From assembly GCA_965223545.1 (NCBI GenBank), contig OZ245006.1, forward strand, positions 3,424,001 through 3,488,000: a stretch of 64,000 nucleotides of DNA, read 5' to 3'. Below the pieces are notes generated by a model. That model had not been told where the DNA came from. It saw nothing but the letters and a program-made list of their open reading frames with translations, and made no database searches. Position 1 is the first letter of the stretch; every line of letters begins with the position of its first letter. This stretch comes from Planctomycetota bacterium (GTDB lineage: Bacteria; Planctomycetota; UBA1135; UBA2386). Positions 28,524 through 58,042 of this stretch are shown in pieces. A program made the position numbers and the translations under genes.

Positions 28524-28600
28524 CTTCCTGGACGGCGAGGCGAAGGCTGCCGCCAGGAACCGCTGCCGTCAAGTCGGGTGACCGGTCGCGCTCCGCTCCC

Positions 28601-30087: not shown

Positions 30088-30148
30088 TGCAAACAGAGAA
30101 CGGGGAGCCCGCGGTCGGGGTCGCGAAATCCGGCGGCGGCCGCCCGAC

Positions 30149-32360: not shown

Positions 32361-33559
32361 GCGCGGTCGCCTTCGTGCCGGTGCGGGGCGGCAGCAAGGG
32401 CATCCCCGACAAGAACATCCGCCCCTTCTGCGGCCGGCCCCTGGTGGCCTGGATCCTGCACGCGCTGGAAGCGGCGCAGCGCGTGCAGCGCGTCGTCGTG
32501 TCGACCGACTGCGAACGCATCGCATCGGTGGTCCGCGCACTCCGTCTCGGCAAGGTCGAGGTGTTCCACCGCAGCGCCGCGACCGCGACCGATACCGCGA
32601 GCACCGAGAGCGCGATGCTGGAGTTCCTCGCCGCCGATTCGATCGCCGACGAGACGCCGTTCGTCCTGGTGCAGGCGACCTCGCCGTTCACGCGGGCGGC
32701 CGACATCGATACCGCGCTGGCGCGCTTCGACGCCGAGCCGTGCGACTCGATGCTCTCCGTCGCCCGCGTCCGGCGCTTCTTCTGGAGCGACGACGGCATG
32801 CCGCTCAACTACGAGCCGCGGCACCGGCCGCGCCGGCAGGACTTTGCCGGCAGCCTGATCGAGAACGGCGCGTTCTACATCAACCGCGCGGGCACCGTGC
32901 GTCGCTACCGCAACCGCCTGCACGGCGACGTGCTGCCCCACGAGATGGCCGAGCACAGCGTGCTCGAGCTCGACGAGCCGGACGATTGGCTGATCGGCGA
33001 AGCACTGATGCGGCGCCATGGCGGAGTCACACAGCTGCCGCCACCGAAACTCGCGCTGGTGTTGACGGACGTCGACGGCGTCCTCACCGACGGCGGCATG
33101 TACTACGGCAACTCCGGCGAGGAGAGCAAACGCTTCAACACCCTCGACGGGATGGCATTCGAGCTGGCGCGCAACGCCGGCCTGCGCACCGGCATCGTCA
33201 CCGGCGAGTCGACCGACCTGGTCGCGCGGCGGGCGGCGAAGATCGGCGCGGACTTCGTGTATCAGGGCATTCGCGACAAGCTCCCCGTCGTCGAGCGACT
33301 GTGCGCGGAGCTCGGCATCGGCTTGCAGCAAGTCGCCTACGTGGGCGACGACCTCGGCGACTTGGAGGTGCTGCGCGCGGTGGGTCTGGCGGCGTGCCCT
33401 TCGACCGCGGTGGCCGCGGTGCGAGATGTGGTCCACTACGTCTGCGAACGCGCCGGGGGCCAGGGTTGCCTGCGGGAGGTCGTGGACCGGTTCGTGATGC
33501 CGACGGCGCTCGCCGAAGCGGCAAGCCACAATGACCAACTTCGTGCCGTCGCACGCTGA
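32357..33559 (+). CDS. CMP-nonulosonate synthetase (NeuA-like) fused to a KdsC-like HAD phosphatase
   Basis: PVRGGSKGIPDKN, QATSPF, ENGAFY and ELDEPDD, followed by TDVDGVLTDG and YVGDDLGD. Confidence 0.9.
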   Translation: MSAVAFVPVRGGSKGIPDKNIRPFCGRPLVAWILHALEAAQRVQRVVVSTDCERIASVVRALRLGKVEVFHRSAATATDTASTESAMLEFLAADSIADETPFVLVQATSPFTRAADIDTALARFDAEPCDSMLSVARVRRFFWSDDGMPLNYEPRHRPRRQDFAGSLIENGAFYINRAGTVRRYRNRLHGDVLPHEMAEHSVLELDEPDDWLIGEALMRRHGGVTQLPPPKLALVLTDVDGVLTDGGMYYGNSGEESKRFNTLDGMAFELARNAGLRTGIVTGESTDLVARRAAKIGADFVYQGIRDKLPVVERLCAELGIGLQQVAYVGDDLGDLEVLRAVGLAACPSTAVAAVRDVVHYVCERAGGQGCLREVVDRFVMPTALAEAASHNDQLRAVAR

Positions 33560-35078
33560 AGCCACCGCGACCGCGGCAGCCGCGGCGCCAGCCGCCGCGC
33601 ACGCCGCGGCGCTCGACGCGCCGCGCCGCGCGTTCTTGGGCATCGAGGCCGAGCATGCGCTGTTCGACCGCACGGCCGACGGCTGCCGCGCGTGGGACTA
33701 CCTGCGGGTCGAGGTCTACGACGCGCTGATCCGCGGCCTCGGCCTACTGGGCGAGAAGCACGACGCGCCGCACCGCACGTGGCGCGGCTACGCGCGCCAT
33801 TCCGCGGCCGTCGCCCAAAGCCTGGTGCGGCACAACCCGTTCTTCGCCCGGCCCGCCGAGCTGTGCGTGATCGCCCACCCCCGCCGGCGCCTCGAGCCCG
33901 ACGGCACCTACTGGGATCCCTACACCGACCCGCTGTTGGACGGCTTGCAGCGCGACGCGCTGGTGCTGGAGCGCCCCTACCTCAACCAGCACCGCAGTCC
34001 GGCGCATCCGCGCCGCATCGCCCACCTCGACGCCCTGGCCCTCGCCGCGGCCGCCCGCCGCGCGGTGCGCCCGACAGCGCTGGATGCGGCCGACACCGCC
34101 TGGCTGCTTCAGCTCGAACAGGCGCTGGCGCGCGAGTTCGACGTCGCGGTCCCGGTGCGCGCGATGGCCATCGCCAAGCTCGCTCTGCGCCGAGCGCAGC
34201 TCCCGCTGTGGCGACGGCTGCTGCGCCGGATCTCGCCGCGCGCCGTCCTGCTGGTCGTCAGCTACGGCAACGAGATCCCCATCGAAGCCTGCCGCCACCT
34301 CGGCATCCCCACCGTCGAGCTACAACACGGCGTGATCTCCCCGCAAAACCTCGGCTACCACTTCCCGCTGCCCGGCTGCCGAAAAGAGCTGTTCCCCGAC
34401 TGGCTGTTCACCTTCGGCGACTTCTGGCGGACGGCTGCCGCCTTCCCGCTACCGCGCGACCGCGTGGTCTCGGTCGGCTTCCCCTATCTGGAAATGCGCC
34501 GCTCGACGACGCGCACCGCGCAGCCGCGCCGCGGCGTGCTCATCGTCTCGCAGAAGTCCAACGGCGTCGCGCTCTCGCGCCTCGCCGTCGAGCTGCGCCA
34601 GCGCCTCGAACCCGACACGCCGGTGATCTACAAGCTGCACCCCGGCGAACAGCGCGACTGGCGCATCAACTACCCCTGGCTCGCGGCATCGCCGGTGCGG
34701 GTGATCCAAGGCGATCACCCCCACCTCTACGATCTGTTCACCCAGTCCGAGCTGCAGATCGGCACGTACTCCACCGCCCTGTTCGAGGGCTTGAGCTTTG
34801 GCCTCGAGACCTGCGTCGCCGCGCTGCCTGGGGCGGAGGCGCTGGCGCACTTGGTGGATGCGTGCGAGGCCGCGCACTGGGTGCGTGGGGTGGAAGACGT
34901 GGTGCGGGCGCTGCGGGTGCGGCGGGGCCGGTCGGCTCCGATCGATGCGGGGGCGTGGTTTGCTGGGGGCGCGATCGAGAACGCCGAGGCGGCTTTGGGC
35001 CGCGCTCTAGCGACAACGCAGGGCGACGGTCGCTCCGCAGTAAGTGGAAGGTGCCGGGCCCCTGCTTGGCTGCCTTGA
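33531..35078 (+). CDS. Putative glycosyltransferase (nonulosonyl-transferase candidate, GT-B-like)
   Basis: Overlaps the CMP-synthetase gene; IPTVELQHG, FTFGDFW, VGFPYL, IYKLHPGE and YSTALFEGL resemble capsule/sialyltransferase-associated GT-B proteins. Confidence 0.6.
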   Translation: MTNFVPSHAEATATAAAAAPAAAHAAALDAPRRAFLGIEAEHALFDRTADGCRAWDYLRVEVYDALIRGLGLLGEKHDAPHRTWRGYARHSAAVAQSLVRHNPFFARPAELCVIAHPRRRLEPDGTYWDPYTDPLLDGLQRDALVLERPYLNQHRSPAHPRRIAHLDALALAAAARRAVRPTALDAADTAWLLQLEQALAREFDVAVPVRAMAIAKLALRRAQLPLWRRLLRRISPRAVLLVVSYGNEIPIEACRHLGIPTVELQHGVISPQNLGYHFPLPGCRKELFPDWLFTFGDFWRTAAAFPLPRDRVVSVGFPYLEMRRSTTRTAQPRRGVLIVSQKSNGVALSRLAVELRQRLEPDTPVIYKLHPGEQRDWRINYPWLAASPVRVIQGDHPHLYDLFTQSELQIGTYSTALFEGLSFGLETCVAALPGAEALAHLVDACEAAHWVRGVEDVVRALRVRRGRSAPIDAGAWFAGGAIENAEAALGRALATTQGDGRSAVSGRCRAPAWLP

Positions 35079-40754: not shown

Positions 40755-42065
40755 TCAGCGCTCGATGACGACCTCCGCCACCGGCAGGAACGTCCGGTCG
40801 AAGCGCTCGACGAAGTCCTCGAGCAGGACCCGCGCATCGGGGGTAGGGCGGACCCGGTGGCGGCGACTGCCCACGCGCACGGTGGTGTGGCCGTCGCCCT
40901 CGAGATCCTCCTCGCGCAAGAGCAGGCGGAAGCGCTGGACGCGCTCGACCTCGACGCGCACCACGCCCGGCGCGGTCCACTCGGCTTGGATCCGCGCCGT
41001 CCGTTCATCGACCTGCTTCTGCACCAGCCGGCGGCGGGTCTGATCGTCCGCCGCCTGCCAGCGCCGCGCGTCGATGCGGGGTCTCACCGACTCCCGCACG
41101 GAGCGGTCCAGTGCCAGCACCTCCACCCAAGAGGACCGCGCTTCGCGCAAGACCGCGCAGCGCAGGACCACAGAATCGGGACGCGGGTCGCGGGTCGCGG
41201 CGCCGAGGAACTCGACCCAATCGACCGCGCCCAGATCGAACGCGTGACCCAAGTGCTCGAAGCGCACCCACTGCGCGTCGCGCGCACCCAGCTGCGCCAG
41301 CCGGTCGAACGCGAACGCCAAGTTGGAGAGCAGGCGCGGGTCGTCACCGTCGCCCTGCAGATCGCGCAGCGGTAGGTGGACGATGTTCTCCAGATAGCGC
41401 AGGTTGTTCTGGCCATCGGCGGGGTTCCACCGCGGTCCGCCGATCAACGGCGCCGCCGCCGCCCACCGGTCGGGAAAGCGGGTGGCCAGATCCCAGACGA
41501 GGTGGCCTCCCCGACTGACCCCGGTGAGGAACACGCGGTTCTCGTCGACGTTCCAACGCCGTCGCAGCCACCGCACCGCCGCCAGCGCGGCGTGGCGCTC
41601 GCGGCGACTGAAGTCGTAGCCCTCGTTGCTGCCGGCCTCCGAGGGCGCCAACACCAGCATGCCGAGCTGGTCGGCGACTGCGCGCCAGGGCGCGATCTGA
41701 CGTCGGCCGGATCCACCCGTGCCGTGCGCAGCCAACAGCAAGGGCGCCGGGGTGTCGGGCCGATAGCTCGGCGGCTGGTAGACGAACAGCTCGGTCGACT
41801 CGAGCGCGCCGTCCACCGGCAACTGCGCCTCGTGCCGGTGCTGACCCGGCCCGAACGCCTCGAAATCGCCGAAACCGCGCATCAACTCGATCCACAGCGC
41901 GAGCGTCACGTCCTCCCGCGCCGCGAGCTGGGTCGCCGCGGCGCGGCGCCGCTCCGGATCGGGCTGATCGACCGCCGCGGCGAGCGCGCGCGCGGGGTGT
42001 TGGCCCGCGACCATCCCACTGAGCAGGAGCGCGGCGGCGGCGCTGTCGAGCTTCACCGACACCAC
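40755..42065 (-). CDS. Exported alpha/beta hydrolase (esterase/depolymerase-like)
   Basis: LLLAAHGTGGSG, RVFLTGVSRGG (GxSxG), QGDGDD and LGHAF. Start uncertain. Confidence 0.72.
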   Translation of the reverse strand: MVSVKLDSAAAALLLSGMVAGQHPARALAAAVDQPDPERRRAAATQLAAREDVTLALWIELMRGFGDFEAFGPGQHRHEAQLPVDGALESTELFVYQPPSYRPDTPAPLLLAAHGTGGSGRRQIAPWRAVADQLGMLVLAPSEAGSNEGYDFSRRERHAALAAVRWLRRRWNVDENRVFLTGVSRGGHLVWDLATRFPDRWAAAAPLIGGPRWNPADGQNNLRYLENIVHLPLRDLQGDGDDPRLLSNLAFAFDRLAQLGARDAQWVRFEHLGHAFDLGAVDWVEFLGAATRDPRPDSVVLRCAVLREARSSWVEVLALDRSVRESVRPRIDARRWQAADDQTRRRLVQKQVDERTARIQAEWTAPGVVRVEVERVQRFRLLLREEDLEGDGHTTVRVGSRRHRVRPTPDARVLLEDFVERFDRTFLPVAEVVIER

Positions 42066-42193
42066 CGCATGGTATCGCAGTGCGGCGGCGGCGGCGCGAG
42101 CACGCCAAACGCGCACGATCGCGTACGCACGCCAAGAACAGTGGCGCGAAGGTCGCGCGCATCAGCCCCCGCTTCTCCCGCAAAGGACGACCG

Positions 42194-42775
42194 ATGCGAT
42201 CCGTGCGCGTTCCACTCCTCGCCACCCTCTGCCTTCTGCCGACGATCCACCACCTCTTCGCGACCCCGGCGCCGGCGCCACCCGTGTCCTCGAAGGACCC
42301 GGTGTTCGAGCACCTTCTCGGCACCTGGGACCTGAGCTACACCGTTCGCACCTCGGCGGACGCGACCCCGTCGGTCGATCGCGGTGTCGAGCGACACCGC
42401 CTCGCCGCCGGCGGCTTGTTCAAAGTCGTCGAGTTCGAGGGCGAGATGTTCGGAGAAGCCTATGACTCCATCGGGATCATGAGCCGGGATCCGAACAGCG
42501 ACGAGTACACGACTTGGTACTTCGACAACAGCAACTCGCAGGCGCAGGTCTCGAAGGGCACTTGGGACGCAAGCACGCGACAGATGATCAAGTGGTCCGA
42601 TGGCGCCGACTTCGATGGGACGCCGGGCCGATGGAAGCAAGTCCTCGATCTGTCGAAGCCCGAACGCTATCGACTCACGATGCTGGCGGTCCGGGCGGAC
42701 GGCGACGAGCGCGAGGCGATCGTGTGCGACGCGGTCCGCAAGCCGAAGTCCCGCGCCGGCGAGAAGGATCGCTGA
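42194..42775 (+). CDS. Exported DUF1579-like beta-barrel protein
   Basis: Signal peptide; LLGTWD, LAAGGLF..FEGEMFGEAYDSIGIMSRDPNSDEYTTWYFDN; AAAGGA RBS. Confidence 0.65.
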   Translation: MRSVRVPLLATLCLLPTIHHLFATPAPAPPVSSKDPVFEHLLGTWDLSYTVRTSADATPSVDRGVERHRLAAGGLFKVVEFEGEMFGEAYDSIGIMSRDPNSDEYTTWYFDNSNSQAQVSKGTWDASTRQMIKWSDGADFDGTPGRWKQVLDLSKPERYRLTMLAVRADGDEREAIVCDAVRKPKSRAGEKDR

Positions 42776-43604
42776 CCACGGTCGCCGCCCGCGGTCGGCC
42801 GCGGAACTCCGATGGCGAAACGCCGAACAGTCGCTTGAACGACGCACTGAAGTGCGCGCGGCTGGCAAACCCCAGATCCACCGCGATCTCCACGGTCGGC
42901 TTGCCGGCGGTCAATAGCTCGAGTGAGCGGTGCAGCCGCAATCGCTGCACGTACGCGTGCAGCGTGAGCCCGGTCTCGGCACGGAACAAGCGCGCCAGAT
43001 GAAACGGCGACACCGCGCAGACAGCCGCCACTTCGGCGAGCGACGGGGCGGTCCTCCAGGTCTCGGCCAGGAACACGGCCGCACGCTGCGCGGCCGTCTG
43101 GTGCGCGGCGCGGGTCGCGGGCCGCGCCACACCACGCGACCGTGGGCGACCGCCGGCCAGGGTCTCCGCAACCAACCGCAGCGCCAACGCCCGTACCCGC
43201 GACGGCGCGGCTTCGCCCAGGGCCGCGAGCAGCCGCTGGTGCAGGAGTTCGACCTGGGGCGTGCGCGGCACCACCGACGGCAGGCGGTCGCTGGCCGGCA
43301 CTTGGCCGGTCAACACCGAATGGCTCAGCGCCACATAGGTGCACCGGCCTTCTGGTTGGTGGTGGCGATAGCGGTACGCCTCGTCGGCGACGTAGCACAC
43401 GGCAACCGCGCAGCTGCCGACGACCGTGCCGCGCGGACTCGCTTTGGTCCACGCTCCGGCCCGCGGAAACACGAGCTGGAAGCTGGGGGCGCTCCGCGTC
43501 GAGGTCCATCCAGAGTCCGGCCAGGTCCACGGATGGTCGTCGATCCGCACACCGCCTTCGGCGAAGCGCGTGGTGCCATAGACGGGAAGGTCGCAATCGG
43601 CCAC
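42675..43604 (-). CDS. AraC-family transcriptional regulator
   Basis: SLAEVAAVCAVSPFHLARLFRAETG and EIAVDLGFASRAHFSASFKRLFGVSPSEFR. Confidence 0.87.
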   Translation of the reverse strand: MADCDLPVYGTTRFAEGGVRIDDHPWTWPDSGWTSTRSAPSFQLVFPRAGAWTKASPRGTVVGSCAVAVCYVADEAYRYRHHQPEGRCTYVALSHSVLTGQVPASDRLPSVVPRTPQVELLHQRLLAALGEAAPSRVRALALRLVAETLAGGRPRSRGVARPATRAAHQTAAQRAAVFLAETWRTAPSLAEVAAVCAVSPFHLARLFRAETGLTLHAYVQRLRLHRSLELLTAGKPTVEIAVDLGFASRAHFSASFKRLFGVSPSEFRGRPRAATVVSDPSRRRGTSACGPRRTRSPRARRRPPGPPAS

Positions 43605-43682
43605 CCCTCGAACTTTGACAAACCAGCCCCGACGTCAAGCGGCGACAAGCCGGCGCAGGCGAATCGCCCGCACCCGCGGCGG

Positions 43683-46600
43683 TCAAGGCGCCCGAGCCGC
43701 GCCGCCGACCGCCCGCAGCGCCTGCTGCCCGCCCATCGCGACGACCACCTTGCCGGTGTGCTTGGCCGCGGCCATGTGCTCGAACGCGCGCACCGCGTCG
43801 GTCGCGGCAAACACTTCGTGCGGCAAGGGCGCGAACGAGCCGTCGGCGAACCGCTCGGCCAGCGCCCGCCAGCTCTCGGCGAAGCCCGGCATACGGGGGC
43901 CGATCATCACTGCGATGAACTGCAGACTGTTGGCAAACGGGGCCAAGCCGATCGGCGTGTTGGCGAAGATGTCCTGCGCACCCAGCTCGAGGAAACGGCC
44001 GTAGGGCCCCAGCACTGCAAGACCCTTGGCGATGAACTCACCCGCCAGGGAGTTGAGGACCAGATCGACGCCACGACCAGCGGTGGCTTCCATGACGCGG
44101 TCCGCGAACTCCGTGGTCCGGGAGTTCATCACGTGCTCGATACCCATCGCCCGCAGCGTCGCGCGCTTGGCGTCGCTGCCGGCAGTGGCGTAGATCTCCG
44201 CCCCGCGCCACTGCGCGACCTGCACCGCGGCGAGACCGACGCCGCCGGCGGCGGCGTGGATCAAGACCTTCTCGCCGGCCTGCATCCGGCCGAGGGTGAT
44301 CAGCGCGTGGTAGGCGGTGAGGAACGAGATCGGGATCGTCGCCGCCGCTTCCACCGACAGGGCCTGGGGCTTGGCCGCGACGACCGCGGCCGGCACCGTG
44401 ACATACGCGCTGAAGCTCGACGACGACAGCGCGACGACTTCGTCGCCGACCGCAAAGCCGGTCACTCCTGCGCCGATACGGGCAATCCGGCCGGCGCACT
44501 CCAAGCCGATCTCCGGCACGCCACCGTCCGACGCCGGCATCAGCCCCAGCGCGAACAGCACGTCCTTGAAGTTCAAGCCGGTGGCCAGCACCTCGATCTC
44601 GACCTCGCCGTCGGCGGGCGGGCGGCGCGCGCCGCGCACGAAGGCGAGCTCTTCGAGCAGACCGGGCTCGGTGATCTTCAGCGTCACGTTCGCCTCGTCA
44701 CTCTCGGCACTGTCGGCACCGCCGGCCTGCTCGCCGGCGGCCGCCGCGTCCGCCCGGCGCAGGGCGTAGCCCTCGATCCGCACGAGCTCGGCGCCGCTCT
44801 GGTCGACCACGACGACATCGAAACGGCGCTCGCCGGCTGCCGGACTCGGCTGCTCTTCGATGAAGCTGAACGCCGTCGGTGTCATCGCGCCGCGCACGAC
44901 GACGCGCTCGTAGGCAAACGGCAGCATCCCCGCACCGCTCTCTTCGCGGAAACCCACCGCGACGTCGAGGAGCGCGGGATGCAGGCCGTAGCCGCGGTCT
45001 TCGGCCACGGCCGAGGCCGGCAGCTGCATCTCCGTCAACCGCCGCTGATCCCCGAACCAGACCCGGCGCGCGCTGCCCCACCGCGGCCCGAGAGTCATGA
45101 AGCCGGTCGCCTGCTCGAGCTCGTCCGACGCGACTTCGAGCTCGCGCTCCGCGCAGCGCGCGCGCAGGGCCTGCACGTCGTGCCGCGGCTGCGCGCCGCG
45201 CTCGCCGACCACCAGCTGGCCGGTGGCGTGCTCGCTCAGCTCTCCGTCGGCGCCCTCGCTCTCGACGACGAAGTCCGCAGCCCCCTCGCTGACGGTCAGC
45301 ACGGTGCGCACTTCGCGTTCGCCGTCGGTGGGCACCGACAGCGGCGCCAAGAAGAACACCGAGCGCAGCTCGATCGCGGCGCCGCCGGCCAACGACGCGG
45401 CGGCGTGCTGCTCGAACGCCGCCCGCGCCAGCTCGAGATACGCAGTGCCGACCAACACCGGCTCGCCGTGGATGCGGTGCTCGCCCAACACCCAGTGCTG
45501 CGCCGGCGACAACCGCGACGTCCACACCAGCCGCCCGTCGTCGTCGGTGTGCCGGGTCTCGAACAAGGGGTGGTCGGCGGCCACCGGCGGCGTCGCCAGC
45601 GACGGCTTGCTCTCGGCAGCCGCCGGTTTGCCACCCACAAGCTGGGCCTGCGCGGCGAGCGCCGCGACGTTGGGTGATTCGAGCACCGCGCGCAGCGCCA
45701 ACGCGATGCCGTGCTTCTGCTTGAGCCGGGCGATCATCCGGTGGCCGATCAGCGAGTCGAAGCCGAGCTGGAAGAAATCGTCGTCCCGGCCGATTTGCGC
45801 CACTCCCAACAGCGACTGGACGACGCTGGCGATCGCCTGCTCGACCTCGCCCGAAGGCGGCGCGTACGCGGTCGCCAGCTCGGGGCGCTCGTGACCGCCG
45901 TCCTCCTCGCCACTGGCGTTCGCCACCGCGGTGGACTCGGCGTCCTCGACCGTGTCGGCCGCGAGCCGCGCCGGCAGATCGAAGGTCGACACCAACAGCT
46001 GGGGCAGCCCGGCGTGCACCGCGCGGACGAAGACCTCGCGGCCATCCTCGTCGGACAAGCCCTTGGCCAACACCTCGCGGTGGGCCGCCGCCATCTCCGC
46101 CGGCACGTCGGCCTCCGCCGCCATCCCGGCCTCGCTCCACGCATCCCAGTTGATGGTGACCGCGCGCCGGGCCCGGCCGCGCGCGGAGTGCGCGAACGCA
46201 TCGAGGAAGGCGTTGGCCGCGGTGTAGTCCACCGATCCGACACCGCCCTTGACCGCGGTCACCGACGAGCAGAGCGCGAAGAACTCGAGCGGGGCGTCGC
46301 CGAGCGCGGCGTCCAGCGCCAGGGTACCGCGCACCTTGGGCGCCAGCACGTGCGCCGCCTCCGCCGCGGTGCGGTTGGCGACCAGCCCTCCGGTCGCGGT
46401 GCCGGCCGCGTGCACGACCCCGCGCACCCGGCCAAAGCGGTCGACGCAGCGCTGCACGACGGCGCGCATCGCCGCCGCGTCCTGCACATCCGCCGTCTCC
46501 AAGACGACCGTGACGCCCGCGGCCTCGAGCGCACCGATCCGCCGCATGCGCCGGCTGGTGCGATCTTCATCACCGTGCTGGGCGCGCCAGGCGTCCCATT

Positions 46601-49600
46601 CCTCGCGCGGCGGCAGGCCGCGGCGCGAAACCAAGACGAGCGCGGAACGCGGCGCCTTGGCCAACAGCTCGGCCAGTGCCAAACCGACACCGCCGACTCC
46701 ACCGGTGATCAGATATGCGCCGGCATCCACCCCTTCGCGGTTCCACACCGGAACGTCGGTTGCAGCCTGCGGCGCCGGCACGGCGCCGGGCAGCCAGCGC
46801 AGCCCGCGCCGCAGCGCCACCACTCCCTGCGCGGCGGTGCCCCACTCGCGCACCAGCTCCTCGACGGTGGCACTCGCGTCCGGATCGACCTCGAGGTCGA
46901 CCAACCGGCAGCGGACGTTGGGCTGCTCGGCGGGGATCACCCGGCACGGCCCCAACATGAGCGCGCGCTCCGGCAGAGACGTCGTCTCACCGCAGACATC
47001 GAACAAGCCGCGGGTCACGACCTCGACGCGCAGCGGGCGTTCGTCGCCCGCCTCGGCCAACACCCGACCCAAGAGCATCAGCGCGTAGAAGCCGCGCGCC
47101 TCGCGCTCCGCGAGGGCGTCGAGCGAAGACGCGCCGCTCGCGGCGACCTGCCAGAGATGGATGACGCGATCGACGCCACCGCCCGCCGCGCTCCACAGCG
47201 CGTCCCAGTCCTCGCGCACATCCGCGCGCAGCGTGTACTCGCCTTCGCCGGTGGCCGCGAAGCGCTCGCCGATGCGGGCCACGGTGACCTCGCCAACCCG
47301 GCGCAGCGCTTCGACCACCGACGCCGACAACGGGTCGTCGCCGGCCAACACCAGCGTGCGCGCCGGCGGATCGGCGGCGACCGCAGCCGCGGCGCGCTGC
47401 CACGAGGGCGCCCAGAACCAATCCGCGACCGCCGCCTTGCGCTCCAGCGAGCCGCCCGCCAGGCCGGGCGGGGTCGCGTCGCGCTCGATCCAGTAGCGCT
47501 TGCGCGCGAAGGGGTAGCCGGGCAGCGGCACGCGCCGCGCTTCGCGACCGTGCACCTGCGGCCAAGCGATGTCGACGCCCGCCATCCACAGCCGGCCGAC
47601 CGCGGTCAACAGGCATTGCCAATCCGACTGCTGATCCTGCGGGTGTCGCATCGACGGCACCACAGCGCGACCGCGCGCGCGCTTGCCCTGTTGCCGCACC
47701 AGCGCGCTCAGCGTCTGGCCCGGCCCCACCTCGAGCAGCACCAGCTCGGGATTGTCGAGCACCGTGCGCGCGCCGGTCGCAAACCGCACCGGGTCCCGCA
47801 GGTTGCGCACCCAGTAGTCCGCGTCGGCCCACAGCTCGGGCTCGATCCACTCGCCGGTCACGGTCGACGCACACGGCAGCTGCGCCGGCGCCGGTTGGAC
47901 CCCGGCGACCACGGCGCGGAACGGCGCCGACATCGGCTCCATCATCGACGAGTGGAAGGCGTGGCTGGTGTGCAGCAACCGGCACGGCAGGTCCTGCCGC
48001 GCCAGCTCCTCCTGCAGCTGCGCCACCGCGTCGCGCGGACCGCCGACGACGCACGACGACGGGCCGTTGATCGCCGACAGCGACAGCTCGCCGTTGAGCA
48101 GCGGCTGCACCTCACCCTCGGGCAGGCCGACGCTGAGCATGTCGCCCGCCGGCAGCTCCTGCATCATCCGACCGCGTTCGGCCACCAGGCGCAGCGCGTC
48201 CTCCAGCGAGAACACCCCGGCGAGCGTGGCGGCGACGTACTCGCCGATGCTGTGACCGATGACCGCCGCGGGGCGCACGCCCCACGACTCCCACAGCATC
48301 GCCAGCGCGTACTCGACGGCGAACATCGCCGGCTGGGTGACACGGGTCTGCGACAGCTGGGCGGTGTGCTCCTCGGCGGGCTCGGAGGGATACACGACCT
48401 CGCGCAGATCCAAGCCCAATGGCTCCGTCAACAGCGCCGCGCACCGATCGAACGCATCGCGGTACACCGCGGCGTGTTCGTAGAGCTCGCGCCCCATGCC
48501 GACGTACTGCGCGCCCTGCCCGGGAAACATGAACGCCACCGGTGGGTGCTCGGCGCCGCGCACACCGCTGATCAACTGGCGCGCATTGCCCGACTCGAGC
48601 GCTGCAGCCAGCGCGACCGCATCCGCGCCGACGGTGAAACAGCGGTGCTCGAAGCCGCTGCGGCTGCGCTGCGTCGTCGCCGCGACTTCGCCCGGATCGA
48701 GGTCGGGCTCGGCCCGCAGCCGCGCGGCGAGCGCTTGGCGATAGGCATCCAGCGCCGCCTCGGTCTTCGCCGACAGGGTGACGAGGTGCTGGGGCCGCGC
48801 TGCCGCGCGCGCCGGCGAGGCTGGCGCCTCTTCCAGCACCACGTGGGCATTGGTGCCGCCGATGCCGAACGAGCTGACCGCGGCGCGGCGCGGGGACGCC
48901 CCGCGCGACCATGGCTGCAGCCGGTCGGCGACGTAGAACGGACTGGCGGCGAAGTCGATCTCCGGGTTGGGCTCCTCGAAGTTCGGGCTCGGCGGGATCG
49001 CCTCGTGCTCGAGCGCCAGCACCGCCTTGATCAGACCCGCGACCCCGGCGGCGGTGTCGGCGTGGCCGATGTTGGCCTTCACCGAGCCGAGCGCGCAGTA
49101 CTGCTGGCGCTCGGACTCGCCGAACGCCTTGCTGAGCGCGGCGACCTCGATCGGATCACCCAGCGGCGTCGCCGTGCCGTGGCACTCGACGTAACCGATC
49201 GACGAAGGGTCGATGCCGGCGGCCTGCTGCGCCGCGCGGATCACCGCCGCCTGCCCCTCGACGCTGGGGGCGGTGAAGCCGACCTTGTTGGCGCCGTCGT
49301 TGTTGAGTGCGGCACCGGCGATCACCGCGCGGATCGGGTCGCCATCCTCGATCGCCCGATCGAGGCGCTTGAGCAGGACGACGCCGACGCCTTCGCCGCT
49401 GAACGTGCCCTGCGCGCCGCTGTCGAACGGCCGGCAGCGTCCGTCCGGCGAGAAGATCTCGCCCTCGCGATACAGGTGACCGACGCGCTGCGGTACGCCG
49501 ACGAACACGCCGCCGGCCAGCGCCATGTCGCTCTGTCCGGTGAGCACGCTCTCGCACGCCTGCACGACCGCGACGAGGGACGTCGAGCAAGCCGTGTAGA

Positions 49601-52600
49601 CCTCGACCGCCGGACCGCGCAGGTTGAGCTTGTACGAGGCGCGCGTCGCCAAGAACGACACGTCGGTCAGCGCCAGATCGAAGGCATCGGCGGCCTCGAC
49701 GTAGGCGCGGTTGCCCAGCAGGTTGTTGCGGTGGTAGTTGTTGGGCGCGCTGCCGGCGTAGACGCCGACCGCGCCGGGCGTGCGCAACGGGTCGTAGCCG
49801 GCCGACTCGAGCGCGACGTATGCGGCTTCCAAGAACAGCCGCACCTGCGGGTCGGTCCGCTCGGCCTCCTTCGGGCTGAAACCGAAGAAGGAGGCGTCGA
49901 ACCGATCGACGTCGTCGAGCACGGCGCGCACCGGGACGTAGCGCTCATCGCGCAACCAGCGCTCGGCGATTCCGCTGGCGCGCAGCTCCTCTTCGCTGAA
50001 GCGCGCGCCACACTCGACGCCATCGCGCAGCACCTGCCAGAACGCGTCGAGGTCGGGCGCCTTGGGGAAGCGGCCGGCCATGCCGATCACCGCGACCGCC
50101 GCCGACTGCGCCGGGGCTGGCCTGGGAGTGGCCGCCGCGGCCTCGTCGCCGCGATCCCGCGGCGCGTCGGCGACCCCGAGGCGCTGCGCCATCGCGGCCA
50201 CGGTGGGATGCTGGAACACCTCGGCCACCGACAGCTGCTCGCCGAATTCGGCCTGCAGCTTGGCGCGCAGCCGCACCAAGTGGAGCGAGTGCCCACCGAT
50301 CTCGAAGAAGTTGTCCTCCCGGCCGACGTGCTCGACCTCGAGGATCGAGCGCCACAGCGCCGCGACGCGCTGCTCACCGGCACCGCGCAGCGGCACCGCC
50401 ACGGCCGCGGTCGCCGGCGCCACGCGCTCGCTCAACCGCGCCCGGTCGATCTTGCCGTTGGGTGTCAGCGGCAAGGCCTCGAGCACTTCGATCGAGGACG
50501 GGACCATGTAGTCCGGCAAGCTGCGCGCCAGGTGTGCTCGCAGCGCGGCCGCATCGAGCGCGGCGCCGGCGACCGGCACCGCGAATGCCGCGAGCTGCAC
50601 GTCTCCGGCCGCGCGCGACTGCGCGACGACGACGCATTCGGCCACCGCCGAGTGCGCCACCAGCACCTGCTCGATCTCGCCCAGCTCGATGCGAAACCCG
50701 CGCACCTTGACCTGGTGATCGATGCGCCCGAGAAAGTCCAGCTGCCCATCCGCGCGCCAGCGCACCAGGTCGCCGGTGCGATACAGGCGTCCGTCGCCGA
50801 ACGGGGAGTCGATGAACTTCTCGGCGGTGAGCTCCGGCCGCGCATGGTAGCCGCGAGCCAAGCTGGCGCCGCCGATCCACAGCTCGCCGGGCACCCCGAC
50901 CGGCACCAGCTGGCGGTGCCGGTCCACGACGAAGGCGGAGACGTTGTCGATCGGCCGGCCGATCGGCGGCGCGACGCCGGGCTGCAGGTCGGCCGGCACG
51001 TCGCAGTAGGTCGCCACCACCGCGCTCTCGGTCGGCCCGTACTGGTTGACCAGGCGAAACGGCAATGCCGGCGGCGGCGGGGCGTTGAGCCGATCGCCAC
51101 CGGTGAGCAGCGCCCGCAGGCAGAGACCGGCGGGCATCGGCTCGGCCAGCATCGCCTCGGCCAGCGGAGTCGGCGCAAAGCTGAGGGTCACGCGCTGGTC
51201 GGCGAGCCATTCGAGCAACTGTTCCGGCACCTTGCGCACGTCTTCACCGGGCAGGTGCACACTGGCGCCGGCGGTGAGGTACGGCCACAGCTCCCAGACA
51301 GTCGCATCGAACGCCAACCCCGCGACCAGCGACGCGCGGTCGGCGGCGACCACGGCGTACTCGCGGCGGTGCCAGAAGATCAGGTTGAGCAGGGCGGCGT
51401 GCTGGATCTCGACCCCCTTGGGCCGCCCGGTCGAACCCGAGGTGAAGATCACGTACACCGTGTCGTCGACGCCGAGCTCGACGTCGGGGTTGTCGGCCGG
51501 CATCGACGCCACCGCGTCGCGCTCCGCGTCGAGATCGAGGAGCTCCGCTCCACCACCCGAGAGCGCGGCCGCCATGCCGGCGTGGGTGATGAGCACGGGC
51601 ATGGCCGCGTCCTCGATCATTCCCGCCAAGCGCTCGGGCGGATTGGCCGCATCGAGCGGAACGTAGGCGGCGCCGGCCTTCATCACTCCGAGCAGGGCGG
51701 CGACCATGTCGACCCGCCGCTGCATCAGCACACCGATCAGCGCTCCGCGCCGCGCACCGCGCCGCAGCAGCGCATGCGCGATGCGGTTGGCGCGGGCGTT
51801 GAGCGCGGCGTACGACAGCTGCTCCACTTCGTCGGACAGCGCGATCGCGGCGGGATCGTCCGCCGCGCAGCGCTCGACCAGTCGGTGGACGCAATCCGTG
51901 CGGGGGTCGTCGGTGCGGGTCATCGCACCGTCCGCCAGCTGGGCGCGCTCGGCAACGGTGAGCATTGGCAGCTGGGCCACCGGCCGGTCGGGATCGGCCA
52001 CCAAAGCGGCGACGAGCTCGCCGAGGTGCGCGGCCATCCGTTCGACCGTCGCTGCGTCGAACAGGTCGGCGCTGTACTCGAGCTCGCCAACCAAGCCGGC
52101 CGCGGTCTCGCGCACTGCCAGGGTCAGGTCGAACTTGGCGGTGTCGTGCGGGGTCTCCACCGGCTCGACATCGAGCCCGCCGAGGCGCATCGGCGCGCCG
52201 GCCTCGTCGTAGACGAACGCCACTTGAAACAGCGGGTTGGCGCTCGGATCGAGGTCCTGCCGCAGCGCGGCGACCAACGGCTCGAACGGCATGTCCTGGT
52301 GCTGGTACGCGCCGAGACACATGTCGCGCACGCGGCGCAGCAGCTGGCGGCCACTGGGCGCGCCGGAGAGATCGGCGCGGGCGACCAGCATGTTCATGAA
52401 GAAACCGACCAAACCCTGGGTCTGCGGTTGGTCACGCCCCGCCGTGGGCATGCCGATGGCGATGTCGTCCTGCCCGCTGTAGCGGTGGAGCAGGGCGGCG
52501 TAGACCGCGAGCAGCGTCATCGTCGGCGTGCAGGCCTCGCGCCGGCCGAGCGCCAACAGCTCGTCGGCGAGTCGGCGATCGAGCTGCATCCGGCGGGTGC

Positions 52601-53462
52601 CGCCGGCAAAGCTGCGCTCGCGTGGCCGGGGCCGGTCGGCCGGCAGCACCAGCGGAGCGAGGCCGTCGAGCTGCTCGCGCCAGTACGCCAGCAGCGCGGC
52701 GCCGTCGCGGTCGTAGCGCCTGCGCTGCCAGTCGGCGTAGTCCGTGTAGCGGATCGGTAGCGCTGGGAGCTGCGCATCGGCGCCGTCGACGCGGGCGGCG
52801 TAGAGCGCGCCAAGGTCGTGCTGAATGACGGCGAACGACCATCCATCGCCGACCAGGTGCGGCATCACCAACGACAGCACGTGGTCGTCCACACCGATCC
52901 GCAGCAAGCGCGCGCGCAGCAACGGCACGCGGTCGAGGGCGAAGCCGACCGCCGCATGCGCGCGCGCGGCGCGGACGGCGTCGGCCAACGGCTCGGGCGC
53001 GCCGGTCAGATCCTCGACCTCCAAGCCGAACGGCGGCGCGTCTTCGACCTGCTGCACGGGCTCGTCGTCGCGCAGCGCGAACGTCGTGCGCAACGCCTCG
53101 TGGCGCGCGATCAGCTGCTCGAGGCTCCAGCGCAGCGCCTCGACGTCGAGCGCACCGCGCAGCCGCAAGTGCAGCGGGATGTTGTAGGCCGCGTTGTCGT
53201 CGCTCAGCGCGTAGACCAGCCACAACCGCTGCTGCGCCAGTGACAGGGGCAGGGCGCCGGCCTGCTGCAAGCGCGGGATCTCGCCAGCCGGCGCGTCCTC
53301 GCTGGTCAGCATGGCGACCAGCGCGCTCTTGTGCTCGGCCAGCTGGTCGCGCAACGCGGCGGTGAGCACGCCCTTGGGCGCATTCACTTTGAGGCGCTCG
53401 CCCTCGACGGACACGCGGACCCCGAGGTCGCGGAGCCGGAGCAGAAGATCGGCGGCAGTCAT
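43683..53462 (-). CDS. Hybrid NRPS-type I PKS: TubC-like docking domain-C-A-T-KS-AT-KR-ACP-DH-ER
   Basis: C PLSLAQQRLW / PHLVGDGWS; A YVIFTSGSTGRPKG, NQYGPTE, LYRTGD, NGKIDR; T IGGHSL; KS TACSTS, HGTATPLGDPIE, NIGH; AT GHSIG, HAFHS; KR TGGVGGVG, YTAAN; ACP LGFDSL; DH HRIHGEPVL, HPALLD; ER GLNFKD, IHAAAGGVG. Confidence 0.95.
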   Translation of the reverse strand: MTAADLLLRLRDLGVRVSVEGERLKVNAPKGVLTAALRDQLAEHKSALVAMLTSEDAPAGEIPRLQQAGALPLSLAQQRLWLVYALSDDNAAYNIPLHLRLRGALDVEALRWSLEQLIARHEALRTTFALRDDEPVQQVEDAPPFGLEVEDLTGAPEPLADAVRAARAHAAVGFALDRVPLLRARLLRIGVDDHVLSLVMPHLVGDGWSFAVIQHDLGALYAARVDGADAQLPALPIRYTDYADWQRRRYDRDGAALLAYWREQLDGLAPLVLPADRPRPRERSFAGGTRRMQLDRRLADELLALGRREACTPTMTLLAVYAALLHRYSGQDDIAIGMPTAGRDQPQTQGLVGFFMNMLVARADLSGAPSGRQLLRRVRDMCLGAYQHQDMPFEPLVAALRQDLDPSANPLFQVAFVYDEAGAPMRLGGLDVEPVETPHDTAKFDLTLAVRETAAGLVGELEYSADLFDAATVERMAAHLGELVAALVADPDRPVAQLPMLTVAERAQLADGAMTRTDDPRTDCVHRLVERCAADDPAAIALSDEVEQLSYAALNARANRIAHALLRRGARRGALIGVLMQRRVDMVAALLGVMKAGAAYVPLDAANPPERLAGMIEDAAMPVLITHAGMAAALSGGGAELLDLDAERDAVASMPADNPDVELGVDDTVYVIFTSGSTGRPKGVEIQHAALLNLIFWHRREYAVVAADRASLVAGLAFDATVWELWPYLTAGASVHLPGEDVRKVPEQLLEWLADQRVTLSFAPTPLAEAMLAEPMPAGLCLRALLTGGDRLNAPPPPALPFRLVNQYGPTESAVVATYCDVPADLQPGVAPPIGRPIDNVSAFVVDRHRQLVPVGVPGELWIGGASLARGYHARPELTAEKFIDSPFGDGRLYRTGDLVRWRADGQLDFLGRIDHQVKVRGFRIELGEIEQVLVAHSAVAECVVVAQSRAAGDVQLAAFAVPVAGAALDAAALRAHLARSLPDYMVPSSIEVLEALPLTPNGKIDRARLSERVAPATAAVAVPLRGAGEQRVAALWRSILEVEHVGREDNFFEIGGHSLHLVRLRAKLQAEFGEQLSVAEVFQHPTVAAMAQRLGVADAPRDRGDEAAAATPRPAPAQSAAVAVIGMAGRFPKAPDLDAFWQVLRDGVECGARFSEEELRASGIAERWLRDERYVPVRAVLDDVDRFDASFFGFSPKEAERTDPQVRLFLEAAYVALESAGYDPLRTPGAVGVYAGSAPNNYHRNNLLGNRAYVEAADAFDLALTDVSFLATRASYKLNLRGPAVEVYTACSTSLVAVVQACESVLTGQSDMALAGGVFVGVPQRVGHLYREGEIFSPDGRCRPFDSGAQGTFSGEGVGVVLLKRLDRAIEDGDPIRAVIAGAALNNDGANKVGFTAPSVEGQAAVIRAAQQAAGIDPSSIGYVECHGTATPLGDPIEVAALSKAFGESERQQYCALGSVKANIGHADTAAGVAGLIKAVLALEHEAIPPSPNFEEPNPEIDFAASPFYVADRLQPWSRGASPRRAAVSSFGIGGTNAHVVLEEAPASPARAAARPQHLVTLSAKTEAALDAYRQALAARLRAEPDLDPGEVAATTQRSRSGFEHRCFTVGADAVALAAALESGNARQLISGVRGAEHPPVAFMFPGQGAQYVGMGRELYEHAAVYRDAFDRCAALLTEPLGLDLREVVYPSEPAEEHTAQLSQTRVTQPAMFAVEYALAMLWESWGVRPAAVIGHSIGEYVAATLAGVFSLEDALRLVAERGRMMQELPAGDMLSVGLPEGEVQPLLNGELSLSAINGPSSCVVGGPRDAVAQLQEELARQDLPCRLLHTSHAFHSSMMEPMSAPFRAVVAGVQPAPAQLPCASTVTGEWIEPELWADADYWVRNLRDPVRFATGARTVLDNPELVLLEVGPGQTLSALVRQQGKRARGRAVVPSMRHPQDQQSDWQCLLTAVGRLWMAGVDIAWPQVHGREARRVPLPGYPFARKRYWIERDATPPGLAGGSLERKAAVADWFWAPSWQRAAAAVAADPPARTLVLAGDDPLSASVVEALRRVGEVTVARIGERFAATGEGEYTLRADVREDWDALWSAAGGGVDRVIHLWQVAASGASSLDALAEREARGFYALMLLGRVLAEAGDERPLRVEVVTRGLFDVCGETTSLPERALMLGPCRVIPAEQPNVRCRLVDLEVDPDASATVEELVREWGTAAQGVVALRRGLRWLPGAVPAPQAATDVPVWNREGVDAGAYLITGGVGGVGLALAELLAKAPRSALVLVSRRGLPPREEWDAWRAQHGDEDRTSRRMRRIGALEAAGVTVVLETADVQDAAAMRAVVQRCVDRFGRVRGVVHAAGTATGGLVANRTAAEAAHVLAPKVRGTLALDAALGDAPLEFFALCSSVTAVKGGVGSVDYTAANAFLDAFAHSARGRARRAVTINWDAWSEAGMAAEADVPAEMAAAHREVLAKGLSDEDGREVFVRAVHAGLPQLLVSTFDLPARLAADTVEDAESTAVANASGEEDGGHERPELATAYAPPSGEVEQAIASVVQSLLGVAQIGRDDDFFQLGFDSLIGHRMIARLKQKHGIALALRAVLESPNVAALAAQAQLVGGKPAAAESKPSLATPPVAADHPLFETRHTDDDGRLVWTSRLSPAQHWVLGEHRIHGEPVLVGTAYLELARAAFEQHAAASLAGGAAIELRSVFFLAPLSVPTDGEREVRTVLTVSEGAADFVVESEGADGELSEHATGQLVVGERGAQPRHDVQALRARCAERELEVASDELEQATGFMTLGPRWGSARRVWFGDQRRLTEMQLPASAVAEDRGYGLHPALLDVAVGFREESGAGMLPFAYERVVVRGAMTPTAFSFIEEQPSPAAGERRFDVVVVDQSGAELVRIEGYALRRADAAAAGEQAGGADSAESDEANVTLKITEPGLLEELAFVRGARRPPADGEVEIEVLATGLNFKDVLFALGLMPASDGGVPEIGLECAGRIARIGAGVTGFAVGDEVVALSSSSFSAYVTVPAAVVAAKPQALSVEAAATIPISFLTAYHALITLGRMQAGEKVLIHAAAGGVGLAAVQVAQWRGAEIYATAGSDAKRATLRAMGIEHVMNSRTTEFADRVMEATAGRGVDLVLNSLAGEFIAKGLAVLGPYGRFLELGAQDIFANTPIGLAPFANSLQFIAVMIGPRMPGFAESWRALAERFADGSFAPLPHEVFAATDAVRAFEHMAAAKHTGKVVVAMGGQQALRAVGGAARAP

Positions 53463-56159: not shown

Positions 56160-56191
56160 AAGCGAGAAAATCGAGTCTGACTCGGTACTTC
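56160..56191 (-). repeat. Solo copy of the REP-like unit found in the 11941-12021 palindrome
   Basis: Minus strand reads GAAGTACCGAGTCAGACTCGATTTTCTCGCTT versus GAAGTACGGAGTCAG(T/G)CTCGATTTTCTCGCTT, 30 of 32 identical. Confidence 0.82.
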
Positions 56192-56951
56192 ACGAGAGGT
56201 GTTCGGCTTCCCGTTGGAGTGGTTTGCCCAAAGCGGTGGCGCGCTGGGTGAAGAGGCGCTCGGCGAACTCGTAGAGCTCGACGTCCAGGGCGTTGCGTTC
56301 GGCGATGCAGGCGCGGACCTCGGGCGAGACGGCTTCGCGCGCGGGGCGGTCGGCGGTGATGTTGCGGCGCTCGCCCCGCATGTCGCCCCAGCCGAAGGTC
56401 AGCTTGAACAGCGCCAGCGATTCGTTGAAGCGCTCGGTCAACCCGACCGCGCCGAACTCGGCCAGGCGCGCCTTGGCGTCGTCGAGCATCGCGCGGGTGC
56501 ACTGGCCCCAGTGCACGCCGGCGTGGCCATTGGGCGTCAGCCAGCGCACGTGGTCATTGTCGGCCTCCAGCGTCACCCGCGTCGTGACGTAGTCCTGTAG
56601 GGTGATGCCGCCCTGAACCACCTTGTCGTGGAGGTAGTGCTCCGGCCGCGACAGCACGAAGTGGTAGTGGCTGATGACGCGATCCACGGGCTCGCGCAGC
56701 ATGGTGATGTAGGTCGCCGGCCGCGACAGCAGCTCGTGCACACCGTAGTGCAAATGGCCGCTGATCACGTCGAACGAGTCGCGCTCGGCCTGCGAACGGT
56801 TTGCGAACTCCTCCAGGTTTTGCGGTGCCCCGGTGAGCCGGGCAAACCGACCCCGCGGATACTGGCGAAACAGGATCGCTTCGAAGGACGAGCCCGCCGC
56901 CTTTGGCATGTGCATGAAGATGAGGGGGTTCGGCTTGGTCCGGCAGCGCAT
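56190..56951 (-). CDS. Sulfotransferase family 2 protein
   Basis: LIFMHMPKAAGSS, ISGHLHYG, MLREPVDRVISHY, VGLTERFNESL and NALDVELY. Confidence 0.82.
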   Translation of the reverse strand: MRCRTKPNPLIFMHMPKAAGSSFEAILFRQYPRGRFARLTGAPQNLEEFANRSQAERDSFDVISGHLHYGVHELLSRPATYITMLREPVDRVISHYHFVLSRPEHYLHDKVVQGGITLQDYVTTRVTLEADNDHVRWLTPNGHAGVHWGQCTRAMLDDAKARLAEFGAVGLTERFNESLALFKLTFGWGDMRGERRNITADRPAREAVSPEVRACIAERNALDVELYEFAERLFTQRATALGKPLQREAEHLS

Positions 56952-57016
56952 ACCATCCTTGCAAAGCGGCGCGGACCGACCGTTTCAACCCCGGAATCGC
57001 CACTCGTCCCCCAAGC

Positions 57017-58042
57017 ATGTCCACGCCTGCACCGCGGGTCTCGGTTCTGCTGCCCGTCTACCGGGCGGAGAACACCGTGCGGCGCGCCGCCGAGTCGATC
57101 CTCTTGGGCCATTGGCGTGATCTCGAGCTGATCGCCGTCGTCGACGGCAGCGACGACGCCTCGGGGGCCGTGCTCGAAGCGCTGGCCCGCACCGAGCCGC
57201 GCCTGCGCGTCCTGCACACCGCGCACGGCGGGGTGGCAGCCGCGGCCAACCGCGCGTTCGAGGCCAGCCGGGCGCCGCTGATCGCGCGGATGGACGCCGA
57301 CGACGAGGCCCTCCCCGACCGCTTGGCCCGCCAGGTGCACGCTCTCGAGCACGGCTGCGCCGACGTCGTCGGCAGCCGCGTGGCCATCGTCGACGCCACC
57401 GGCGCGGCGGTGACGGCCATGCGGCGCTACCAGCGCTGGCTCAACGCACTGCTGACCCCCGAGGCGATCGCGGCGGCGCGCTTCGTCGAGCTGCCGCTGG
57501 TCAACCCCAGCCTCACTGGCCGGCGCGCGGCGTTCGCGCTCGGCTACCGGCAATGGGACGACACCGCCGCGGCGATGCCCGAGGACTACGATTGGTTCTT
57601 GCGCGCGGTCGCGCGCGGCTTTCGCTTCGCCAAGGTCGACGACGTGCTGTTGCGATGGACCGAGTCCGCGGATCGGTTGACACGCCGCCACCCCGACTAC
57701 ACCACGGCGGCGTTCGATCGCTGCCGCCGCGCCCACTTGCGCGCGGGCCCGCTGCGGGCGATCGCGCGCGTCGACCTGTGGGGTGTCGCCCGCACCGGCA
57801 AGCCGTGGCTGCGGTGGCTGCAACAAGAGGGCATCCATGTCCGAGAGGCCTACGACATCGACCCGCGGCGCGTCGGGCAGAGGGTGCACGGCCAGCAAGT
57901 CCGCCACTGCGACACCCTGGGCGACGCCGACGGGACGCCGATCCTGGTCGCGGTGGGAGCCGACGGCGCGCGCGCGCAGATCGACGCCGCGCTGCGGCAA
58001 CGCGGCTACCGGCCCGGCGTGGACGCGTGGTTCGTCGCTTGA
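57017..58042 (+). CDS. Glycosyltransferase family 2
   Basis: VSVLLPVY, VVDGSDD, ARMDADD, PEDYDW and FAKV. Confidence 0.87.
   Translation: MSTPAPRVSVLLPVYRAENTVRRAAESILLGHWRDLELIAVVDGSDDASGAVLEALARTEPRLRVLHTAHGGVAAAANRAFEASRAPLIARMDADDEALPDRLARQVHALEHGCADVVGSRVAIVDATGAAVTAMRRYQRWLNALLTPEAIAAARFVELPLVNPSLTGRRAAFALGYRQWDDTAAAMPEDYDWFLRAVARGFRFAKVDDVLLRWTESADRLTRRHPDYTTAAFDRCRRAHLRAGPLRAIARVDLWGVARTGKPWLRWLQQEGIHVREAYDIDPRRVGQRVHGQQVRHCDTLGDADGTPILVAVGADGARAQIDAALRQRGYRPGVDAWFVA

Follow-up and report, generated by a model that had tools for sequence, protein, structure and literature searches.

A planctomycete NRPS-PKS hybrid with dehydratase and enoylreductase located behind the acyl carrier protein

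Domain layout of P0001

The window considered here, i.e. the whole stretch of DNA that was analysed, comprised 64,000 nucleotides of a Planctomycetota bacterium (GTDB lineage Bacteria; Planctomycetota; UBA1135; UBA2386; assembly GCA_965223545.1, contig OZ245006.1, positions 3,424,001 to 3,488,000 of the forward strand). On its minus strand, a single open frame at 43683..53462 encodes an NRPS-PKS protein (a hybrid between nonribosomal peptide synthetase and polyketide synthase) of 3259 amino acids (aa), designated P0001 (open reading frame (ORF) list and Pfam). Pfam and our own profiles gave the domain order TubC_N-C-A-PCP-KS-AT-KRs-KR-ACP-DH-ER, in which the dehydratase (DH) and the enoylreductase (ER) follow the acyl carrier protein (ACP) and close the protein. 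This ACP-DH-ER order is a rare but real rearrangement, a further step from a known lineage in which the ketoreductase (KR) comes first. All Pfam calls exceeded the curated cut-offs except that of the structural part of the KR (KRs, PF21394), which fell just below.

The NRPS half, like all domains given here encoded on the minus strand, opens with a TubC_N docking domain (residues 5-52; 53307..53450; PF18563, E 6e-14), which implies an upstream donor protein. The condensation (C) domain (69-509; 51936..53258) displayed the motif PHLVGDG, with His202 and Asp206 kept and the first His replaced by Pro. The adenylation (A) domain (530-1004; 50451..51875) carried the specificity code DAWFLGQVVK, and the PCP (peptidyl carrier protein; PP-binding 1031-1095; 50178..50372) its Ser1059; a second PP-binding stretch was called as well. 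In the PKS half, the ketosynthase (KS; 1122-1496; 48828..50099) retained Cys1292, His1428 and His1467, and the acyltransferase (AT; 1644-1954; 47601..48533) displayed Ser1738 with GHSIG and HAFH motifs, by which we take it to be of malonyl type. KRs (2036-2192; 46887..47357), weak in PF21394, was supported by our own profile. The catalytic KR (Pfam 2248-2444; 45963..46721) had Lys2376, Ser2399 and Tyr2413, and its last helix/strand element (2465-2500) followed without interruption of the lid.

The internal ACP (2530-2605; 45648..45875) displayed GFDSL with Ser2570 (nt 45753-45755). Behind it stands the DH (2626-2914; 44721..45587; PKS_DH_N 2631-2735, PS-DH 2776-2909) with His2662 (nt 45477-45479) in an HX8V motif (Val2671 for Pro) and Asp2833, lacking the downstream Gln/His. 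The ER (2930-3245; 43728..44675; ADH_N/ADH_zinc_N 2951-3241) is of the medium-chain dehydrogenase/reductase (MDR) type, with an intact NADPH motif, LNFKD, HAAAGGVG and Ala3162 for the ELGK lysine; only 14 residues separate it from the C-terminus. The roles given to these catalytic motifs are those that we presume. After the last carrier, Pfam detected DH and MDR families only, and no thioesterase (TE), short-chain-dehydrogenase-type reductase or terminal C domain. A sequence-only reading of the window had described precisely this KR-ACP-DH-ER order, with an intact ACP serine and no release domain; it was borne out by Pfam, by the motifs and by the short tail, its coordinates were right within ~100 nt, and the profile support that it asked for existed for both DH and ER.

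The structure modelling proposed there was likewise favourable. AlphaFold, run on ACP-DH-ER with an alignment of 50 rows, predicted three separately folded domains with a mean predicted local distance difference test (pLDDT) of 89 and a predicted template modelling score (pTM) of 0.69, at which the inter-domain placement is uncertain; the KR lay outside this model, and a single-sequence run on KR-ACP-DH-ER was of low confidence (pLDDT 38.8). The modelled ER matched ERs and quinone reductases, among them the ER of CurK (Z 42.4, root-mean-square deviation (rmsd) 1.8 A), those of CurF and JamJ also giving Z ~42 and rmsd <2 A.

The join between ACP and DH, at which that reading had asked for a check against a chimera, was spanned in two samples: a contig of run X1 covered 42000-50699 and one of run X4, from another sample of the same study, covered 45370-46590 (end of KR, ACP and start of DH), both with 0 differences to the window. 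The support thus consists of contigs from two samples, not of long reads, and X1 is possibly the source sample. Runs X5 and X7, in which the genome had a small share, yielded scattered short pieces only, and no RNA run was among those listed. GC content at third codon positions (GC3) was flat over the domains of P0001 (0.90-0.93).

Homologs, KR-first relatives and genomic setting

The ACP-DH-ER order was encountered in four further proteins, namely paralog P0094 (C1:1096117-1105431) of the same genome (G000) and P0002, P0006 and P0121 of genome G009, which represents a different genus of the same family, whose proteins carry the label Planctomycetota and in which P0002 is the ortholog of P0001. 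Because these four share the order, it is not an artefact. The search for the architecture suggested by the sequence-only reading uncovered one paralog and three proteins in G009, and did not reveal a common architecture. Contiguous ACP-DH matches were found in two out of 91 genomes of the family and, among 251 genomes sampled from the phylum, nowhere outside G000. When 185,579 species genomes (66 loci) and metagenomes (at least 53 loci) were scanned by pattern, ACP-DH was seen, among the matches listed, on three contigs only, all from G009, and four of the best 150 matches in a representative library (1.84 billion) covered ACP through ER, all from G000 or G009. The 254 parsed proteins comprised five with ACP-DH-ER, 125 with KR-DH-ER-ACP, 80 with canonical order and 44 others or cut ones. 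These figures rest on ranked top lists and exact-pattern scans, which may have passed over remote or independently arisen instances. A blastn comparison with Escherichia coli matched the yersiniabactin KS alone. In the literature searched, outside which most subscription journals lay, no KR-ACP-DH-ER, KR-ACP-DH or ACP-DH-ER order was found among the papers listed, and a broader phrase search found no such architecture in the listed titles or the beginnings of abstracts.

The nearest relatives of P0001 were KR-first modules (KS-AT-KRs-KR-DH-ER-ACP) from cyanobacteria, Acidobacteriota, Streptomyces and others, the nearest members being 45-49% identical over DH-ER. As in this lineage, KRs-KR stand in P0001 directly behind the AT and ahead of DH and ER, and the DH-ER forms a contiguous cassette whose nearest BLAST and tree neighbours were all cassette DH-ERs (canonical AT-DH modules being outside the trees). 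Unlike there, the ACP does not come last.

A profile of the last KR element, built excluding the five ACP-DH-ER proteins (a few duplicates were left in the counts), located it in 138 KR-DH-ER-ACP modules after the ER (90) or after the KR (31), or not at all (17); it came after the DH in 83 of 93 KR-DH-ACP modules and after the KR in 38 of 54 DH-less modules. Since the element lies past the ER or DH in most modules, the DH(-ER) of these modules is inserted within the KR, in the region that we take to be its lid, and not placed after it. P0004, P0009, P0042, L020:6536-13096 and other KR-first modules displayed this insertion type, of which no statement was found in the literature searched (title listing) and which structural and engineering work on modules resembling ClbB of the colibactin pathway should allow for. 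In the five ACP-DH-ER proteins the element directly followed the KR (three by profile, two by eye), with the cassette behind the ACP. The DH-ER, which sits in the KR lid, behind a complete KR or (in these five alone) behind the ACP, thus behaves as a movable cassette, of which P0001 shows a third position.

Further forms, each a single instance, were P0138, a stand-alone DH-ER of 670 aa whose N-terminal leader is docking-like, and P0139, a partial C-DH-ER protein of 897 aa; ER-ACP and KS-AT-ER-KR-DH-ACP forms were also present among the parsed proteins. P0138 was rejected as direct donor, not being sister to the five in trees. A module on an Acaryochloris plasmid that had looked like a split precedent (KS-AT-KR-ACP // DH-ER) turned out to be KS-AT-KR-DH // ER-ACP in an NRPS-PKS cluster (L028:12130-18919). 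In an APD preprint (10.64898/2026.09.17.752105), the KR-DH order is described as rare and non-canonical. KS-AT-KR-DH-ACP proteins of ~2100-2190 aa with a 300-aa tail (a TE by Pfam in L020) were common in the family (loci L020-L027); the DH query matched in 52 of 90 genomes, with this order in all eight inspected. In L020 the gene stands behind a formyltransferase-A-luciferase-like-PCP gene.

The DH-ER sequences of the five proteins formed one clade among KR-first cassettes (support 95, and 98 with a mixture model, 66 rows each) with no resolved sister. Their KS also formed one clade (91), beside local Gly-specific C-A-T-KS-AT-KR-ACP bimodules (T, thiolation domain) lacking DH-ER (97), within a local group (99). 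These trees were quick and unrooted, made without an approximately unbiased test, and suggest that the order likely arose once.

The gene of P0001 stood alone in the window, flanked by a DUF4003 gene and one for an AraC regulator; a C-T-TE gene lay at a distance of 23 kb. No partners of the clb (colibactin) cluster lay beside it, the neighbours being DUF4003, AraC, DUF1579, a sulfotransferase and a family 2 glycosyltransferase (GT2). Genome G000 harbored 19 NRPS/PKS ORFs of one or two modules, scattered on C1, several with TubC_N-like leaders. Some of these genes adjoined glycosyltransferase and O-antigen-ligase-tetratricopeptide genes conserved with G009, and they may represent a dispersed line tied to surface glycans. 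Directly behind the ortholog P0002, G009 carried a TubC_N-C-A(Gly) bimodule, and another one past a resistance-nodulation-division (RND) pump; in G000, the matching Gly bimodules, which have GT4 and O-antigen-ligase neighbours as in G009, were located at a distance of ~400 kb. One of the G009 Gly bimodules (L011:3795-11685) had its ACP out of the KR frame, by a frameshift or an assembly error. A gene for a KedN5-like B12 radical SAM protein (L012:14523-16445, below cut-off) abutted the start of the ortholog, and no homolog was found in G000 at E 1e-15.

Elsewhere in the window, 15873-21596 contained a BesA-like ATP-grasp ligase (below cut-off), the C-T-TE protein (17783-20359, minus strand), which is a candidate release partner of P0001, and a pyridoxal-phosphate-dependent decarboxylase (20271-21596). 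Sulfotransferases, NeuB/NeuA-like genes, a sugar transferase and GT2 surrounded the locus (25575-35078 and 56190-58042). At 10974-15477 on the plus strand, two ORFs, one for a protein kinase (10974-12008) and one for a subtilase (11302-15477), overlapped in different frames and possibly represent one frameshifted gene.

Interpretation of the module

All five A domains displayed the code DAWFLG(H/Q)VVK and the sister bimodules DILQLGMIWK, the extraction having returned the expected codes on colibactin A domains. By common code tables, DAWFLGQVVK was read as Leu-like and DILQLGMIWK as Gly. With moderate probability, P0001 is a permuted NRPS-PKS bimodule of the fully reducing kind, by which a Leu-like residue is extended with malonate and the chain passed on in trans. 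This is supported by the grouping of its DH-ER with KR-DH-ER-ACP processing cassettes and by the conservation of motifs: those of P0001 and ortholog P0002 were intact, and KR Lys/Ser/Tyr, DH His/Asp and the ER NADPH glycines were kept in all five proteins.

We infer the substrate, the activity in cis, the product and the hand-off as follows. An upstream protein would dock on TubC_N, and the C domain would couple its acyl chain to the PCP-bound Leu-like residue; KS-AT would then extend the chain, on the internal ACP, by one malonate. Its ketone would be reduced by the KR, whereupon the DH-ER, attached 21 residues past the ACP, would dehydrate and reduce further. As product we predict a gamma-amino acid of the kind that ClbB makes from Ala, namely a 4-(acylamino)-6-methylheptanoyl unit. 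The chain would leave with the help of another protein in trans (a C or KS protein downstream, or a stand-alone C-T-TE) or by lactam formation, and not through the DH-ER. As to origin, a KR-first DH-ER cassette would, on one occasion, have come to follow the ACP in a planctomycete C-A-T-KS-AT-KR-ACP bimodule of the local group. The chemistry of P0001 is probably ordinary reduction.

Several observations weigh against this reading. The proline of HX8P, kept in 154 of 162 KR-DH-ER, 82 of 89 KR-DH-ACP and 165 of 169 AT-DH domains, was Val (HRIHGEPVLV) in four of the five homologs, which hints at altered DH chemistry. The ELGK lysine, present in 212 of 222 canonical ERs (aligned to CurK), was missing from all five ERs together with the next aspartate; presumably, it is the lysine mutated in the spinosad ER. 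According to PMC7327777, its replacement by Ala caused the largest activity loss in that enzyme. P0006 and P0094 (L054) displayed Ser for the KS Cys (DTASS), and the C (HLVLDA) and AT (GHGAG) motifs of P0121 were degenerate, so that the clade includes non-canonical members. The five were not resolved as one group in the KR tree (three changes) and KR BLAST neighbours were KR-DH-ER modules, so that the rearrangement may have run either way (DH-ER appended or ACP moved). Finally, the tail after the ER (0-14 aa) contained no acidic docking peptide. The Gln/His missing after the DH aspartate was lineage-wide in KR-first cassettes and was rejected as a peculiarity of P0001.

Rather unlikely is a DH acting as dehydratase-isomerase, which after dehydration would shift the double bond of a vinylogous Leu to beta,gamma (enamide/N-acyl-imine). 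The gamma carbon of the chain would then be epimerised from L to D, with the ER trapping the enoyl form afterwards, or hydrolysis would cut the chain at nitrogen as a built-in release. The flagging of Val by the sequence-only reading was sound, since this residue is clade-typical and a published sign of isomerising DHs: a change of the HX8P proline to Leu or Val is described as marking most enoyl isomerases (PMC11672594), which counts for isomerisation. A precedent exists in romidepsin-type NRPS-PKSs, for which a His-Asp-intact, Pro-substituted DH directly after an aminoacyl module is described; an allylic amine there passes through an imine to a gamma-ketone, with loss of the gamma-amine, and the role of the DH still needs verification according to the preprint itself (bioRxiv 10.1101/2025.03.13.642940). 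Links have furthermore been drawn from the KR-DH order to non-canonical chemistry (APD lipopeptides) and to an L-to-D change of Arg (rhabdobranin), the latter placed in PKS elongation by the rhabdobranin paper.

Against isomerisation, P0121 retained the proline, and Val also occurred in two of 162 KR-DH-ER and seven of 89 KR-DH-ACP domains (this second set having been collected in part with a pattern open to Val). The catalytic Asp was kept throughout the five, whereas pure isomerases are described with Asn (PMC7327777), and cis-AT isomerising DHs are reported not to have the Pro change (PMC11672594). GphF DH1 was among the weakest matches to known structures (E 2e-5, versus 2e-21 for the best); the amine is free in romidepsin while the C domain of P0001 looks able to acylate it, and the retained ER would consume the enoyl. 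A fuller version is somewhat less likely still: the DH(HX8V)-ER would be a tailoring head converting a vinylogous N-acyl-leucine into an enamide/N-acyl-imine, followed by gamma inversion or a nitrogen cut (TE-free release), with the relocated lysine of LNFK as the ER acid. If true, it would represent a new strategy of chain editing or termination on an architecture absent from the literature searched. Should the HX8V DH isomerise, the few chemistries listed for NRPS-PKS junctions (nitrogen deletion, gamma-epimerisation) would gain another, with a hint of unknown lipopeptide chemistry in planctomycetes.

Distinctly unlikely is an ER that has become a structural relic, the module halting at the alpha,beta-unsaturated (vinylogous Leu) stage or, with a weak DH, at a statine-like 3-hydroxy stage. 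The loss of the ELGK lysine and of its neighbouring aspartate would fit this, as would the eroding ER ends of P0094 and P0121. The NADPH glycines persisted in all five, though, and the ER was more conserved among them (46-66% identity) than the DH (32-55%). Neither Lys nor Arg occupied the ELGK site in 78 of 165 cassette ERs, including that of ClbB, whose product is saturated, and the missing lysine was for this reason rejected as proof of a dead ER. In a raw table, LNF-K occurred in 66 of the 78 cassette ERs without ELG-K/R and ELG-K in 44 of 46 without LNF-K/R; a compensating swap between the two lysines was not shown, independent pairs giving p ~0.5.

The sequence-only reading had left the choice between a permuted reducing module and a tailoring or off-loading unit. 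Its first half stood, on the strength of the cassette clade and of the motifs kept in all five. Its second half fared poorly: a DH-ER acting in trans (e.g. on Gly bimodules), or off-loading the chain by hydrolysis or reduction, is very unlikely. The terminal position, the lack of a TE, the natural stand-alone DH-ER P0138 and the two DH-less Gly bimodules directly behind the ortholog in G009 would suit it. P0138 was however not related as sister to the five, the Gly bimodules were remote in G000, and the fold and motifs were those of an ordinary MDR enoylreductase, not of a thioester reductase. Moreover, the sister Gly C-A-T-KS-AT-KR-ACP bimodules end at the ACP without TE and without DH-ER; TE absence is therefore a trait of the scattered system, in which release is handled elsewhere, and leaves no gap for the DH-ER to fill. 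P0094 and P0006 adjoined genes for KS-(AT)-ACP-luciferase-like monooxygenases and P0121 was near a degenerate one, i.e. such a gene accompanied three of the five homologs, and its protein could take over the chain. An assembly chimera or recent broken fusion, favoured by nothing except the rarity of the order, was ruled out by the bridging contigs of two samples, the identical order in five proteins of two genera and the flat GC3.

In teaching and in engineering, modules of cis-AT PKSs are treated as having a fixed layout that ends in the ACP. If P0001 is the permuted reducing module favoured here, a natural DH-ER retained five times behind the ACP indicates that a module can gain beta-processing at its C-terminal end, a simple engineering route to test, and the dependence of ACP reach on domain order becomes directly testable.

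Comparison with known systems

Synthases of the enediyne PKS (PKSE)/PfaA type, whose order we take to be KS-AT-ACP-KR-DH, also have processing domains C-terminal to the carrier. Unlike P0001, they are iterative, lack an NRPS module and place the KR, too, after the ACP; the PfaA model scored 355 bits (cut-off 1010) on P0001, over KS-AT only.

With canonical cis-AT modules (MAS, SpnB, CurK/JamJ), P0001 shares the double hot dog fold of the DH and the MDR fold of the ER. Their order KS-AT-DH-KRs-ER-KRc-ACP, in which the DH precedes the KR and the ER splits KRs from KRc, is not that of P0001, and the modelled DH-ER arrangement did not superpose as a whole on MAS (rmsd ~21 A, the inter-domain placement being uncertain). 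Measured against this canonical order, the oddity noted in the sequence-only reading was justified; the common KR-first lineage of ClbB type had been overlooked there.

Enoyl-isomerising DHs (EI, GphF DH1 and, by description, the DH of DepB) resemble that of P0001 in the hydrophobic residue replacing the HX8P proline, the kept His-Asp and, for DepB, the position after an aminoacyl module. There was no close sequence tie to GphF DH1, however, and in P0001 an ER follows. The APD-lipopeptide (BE-43547/rakicidin) and rhabdobranin systems likewise combine an NRPS module with a PKS module of KR-DH order that works on a chain extended by an aminoacyl unit; as compared by description, their modules keep the carrier last, and no trailing ER is described for them.

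The closest counterpart was ClbB, described as C-A-T-KS-AT-KR-DH-ER-T with a saturated 4-aminopentanoyl unit as product (PMC5490422). Parsing of its two open-frame pieces confirmed the KR-first order; the last KR element was not detected by profile, and the 23-residue gap between KR and DH fits the inserted type. P0001 differs from ClbB in its HX8V instead of HX8P, its Leu-like instead of Ala code and the lack of a clb-like cluster, from most KR-first members, with DH-ER inside the KR lid, in its uninterrupted lid, and from ClbB and the whole lineage in the ACP ahead of DH-ER and the ER at the protein end. It shares with them the domain set, the size, KRs-KR behind the AT and a contiguous DH-ER, and with ClbB itself a DH devoid of the downstream Gln/His and an ER displaying LNFKD but not the ELGK lysine.

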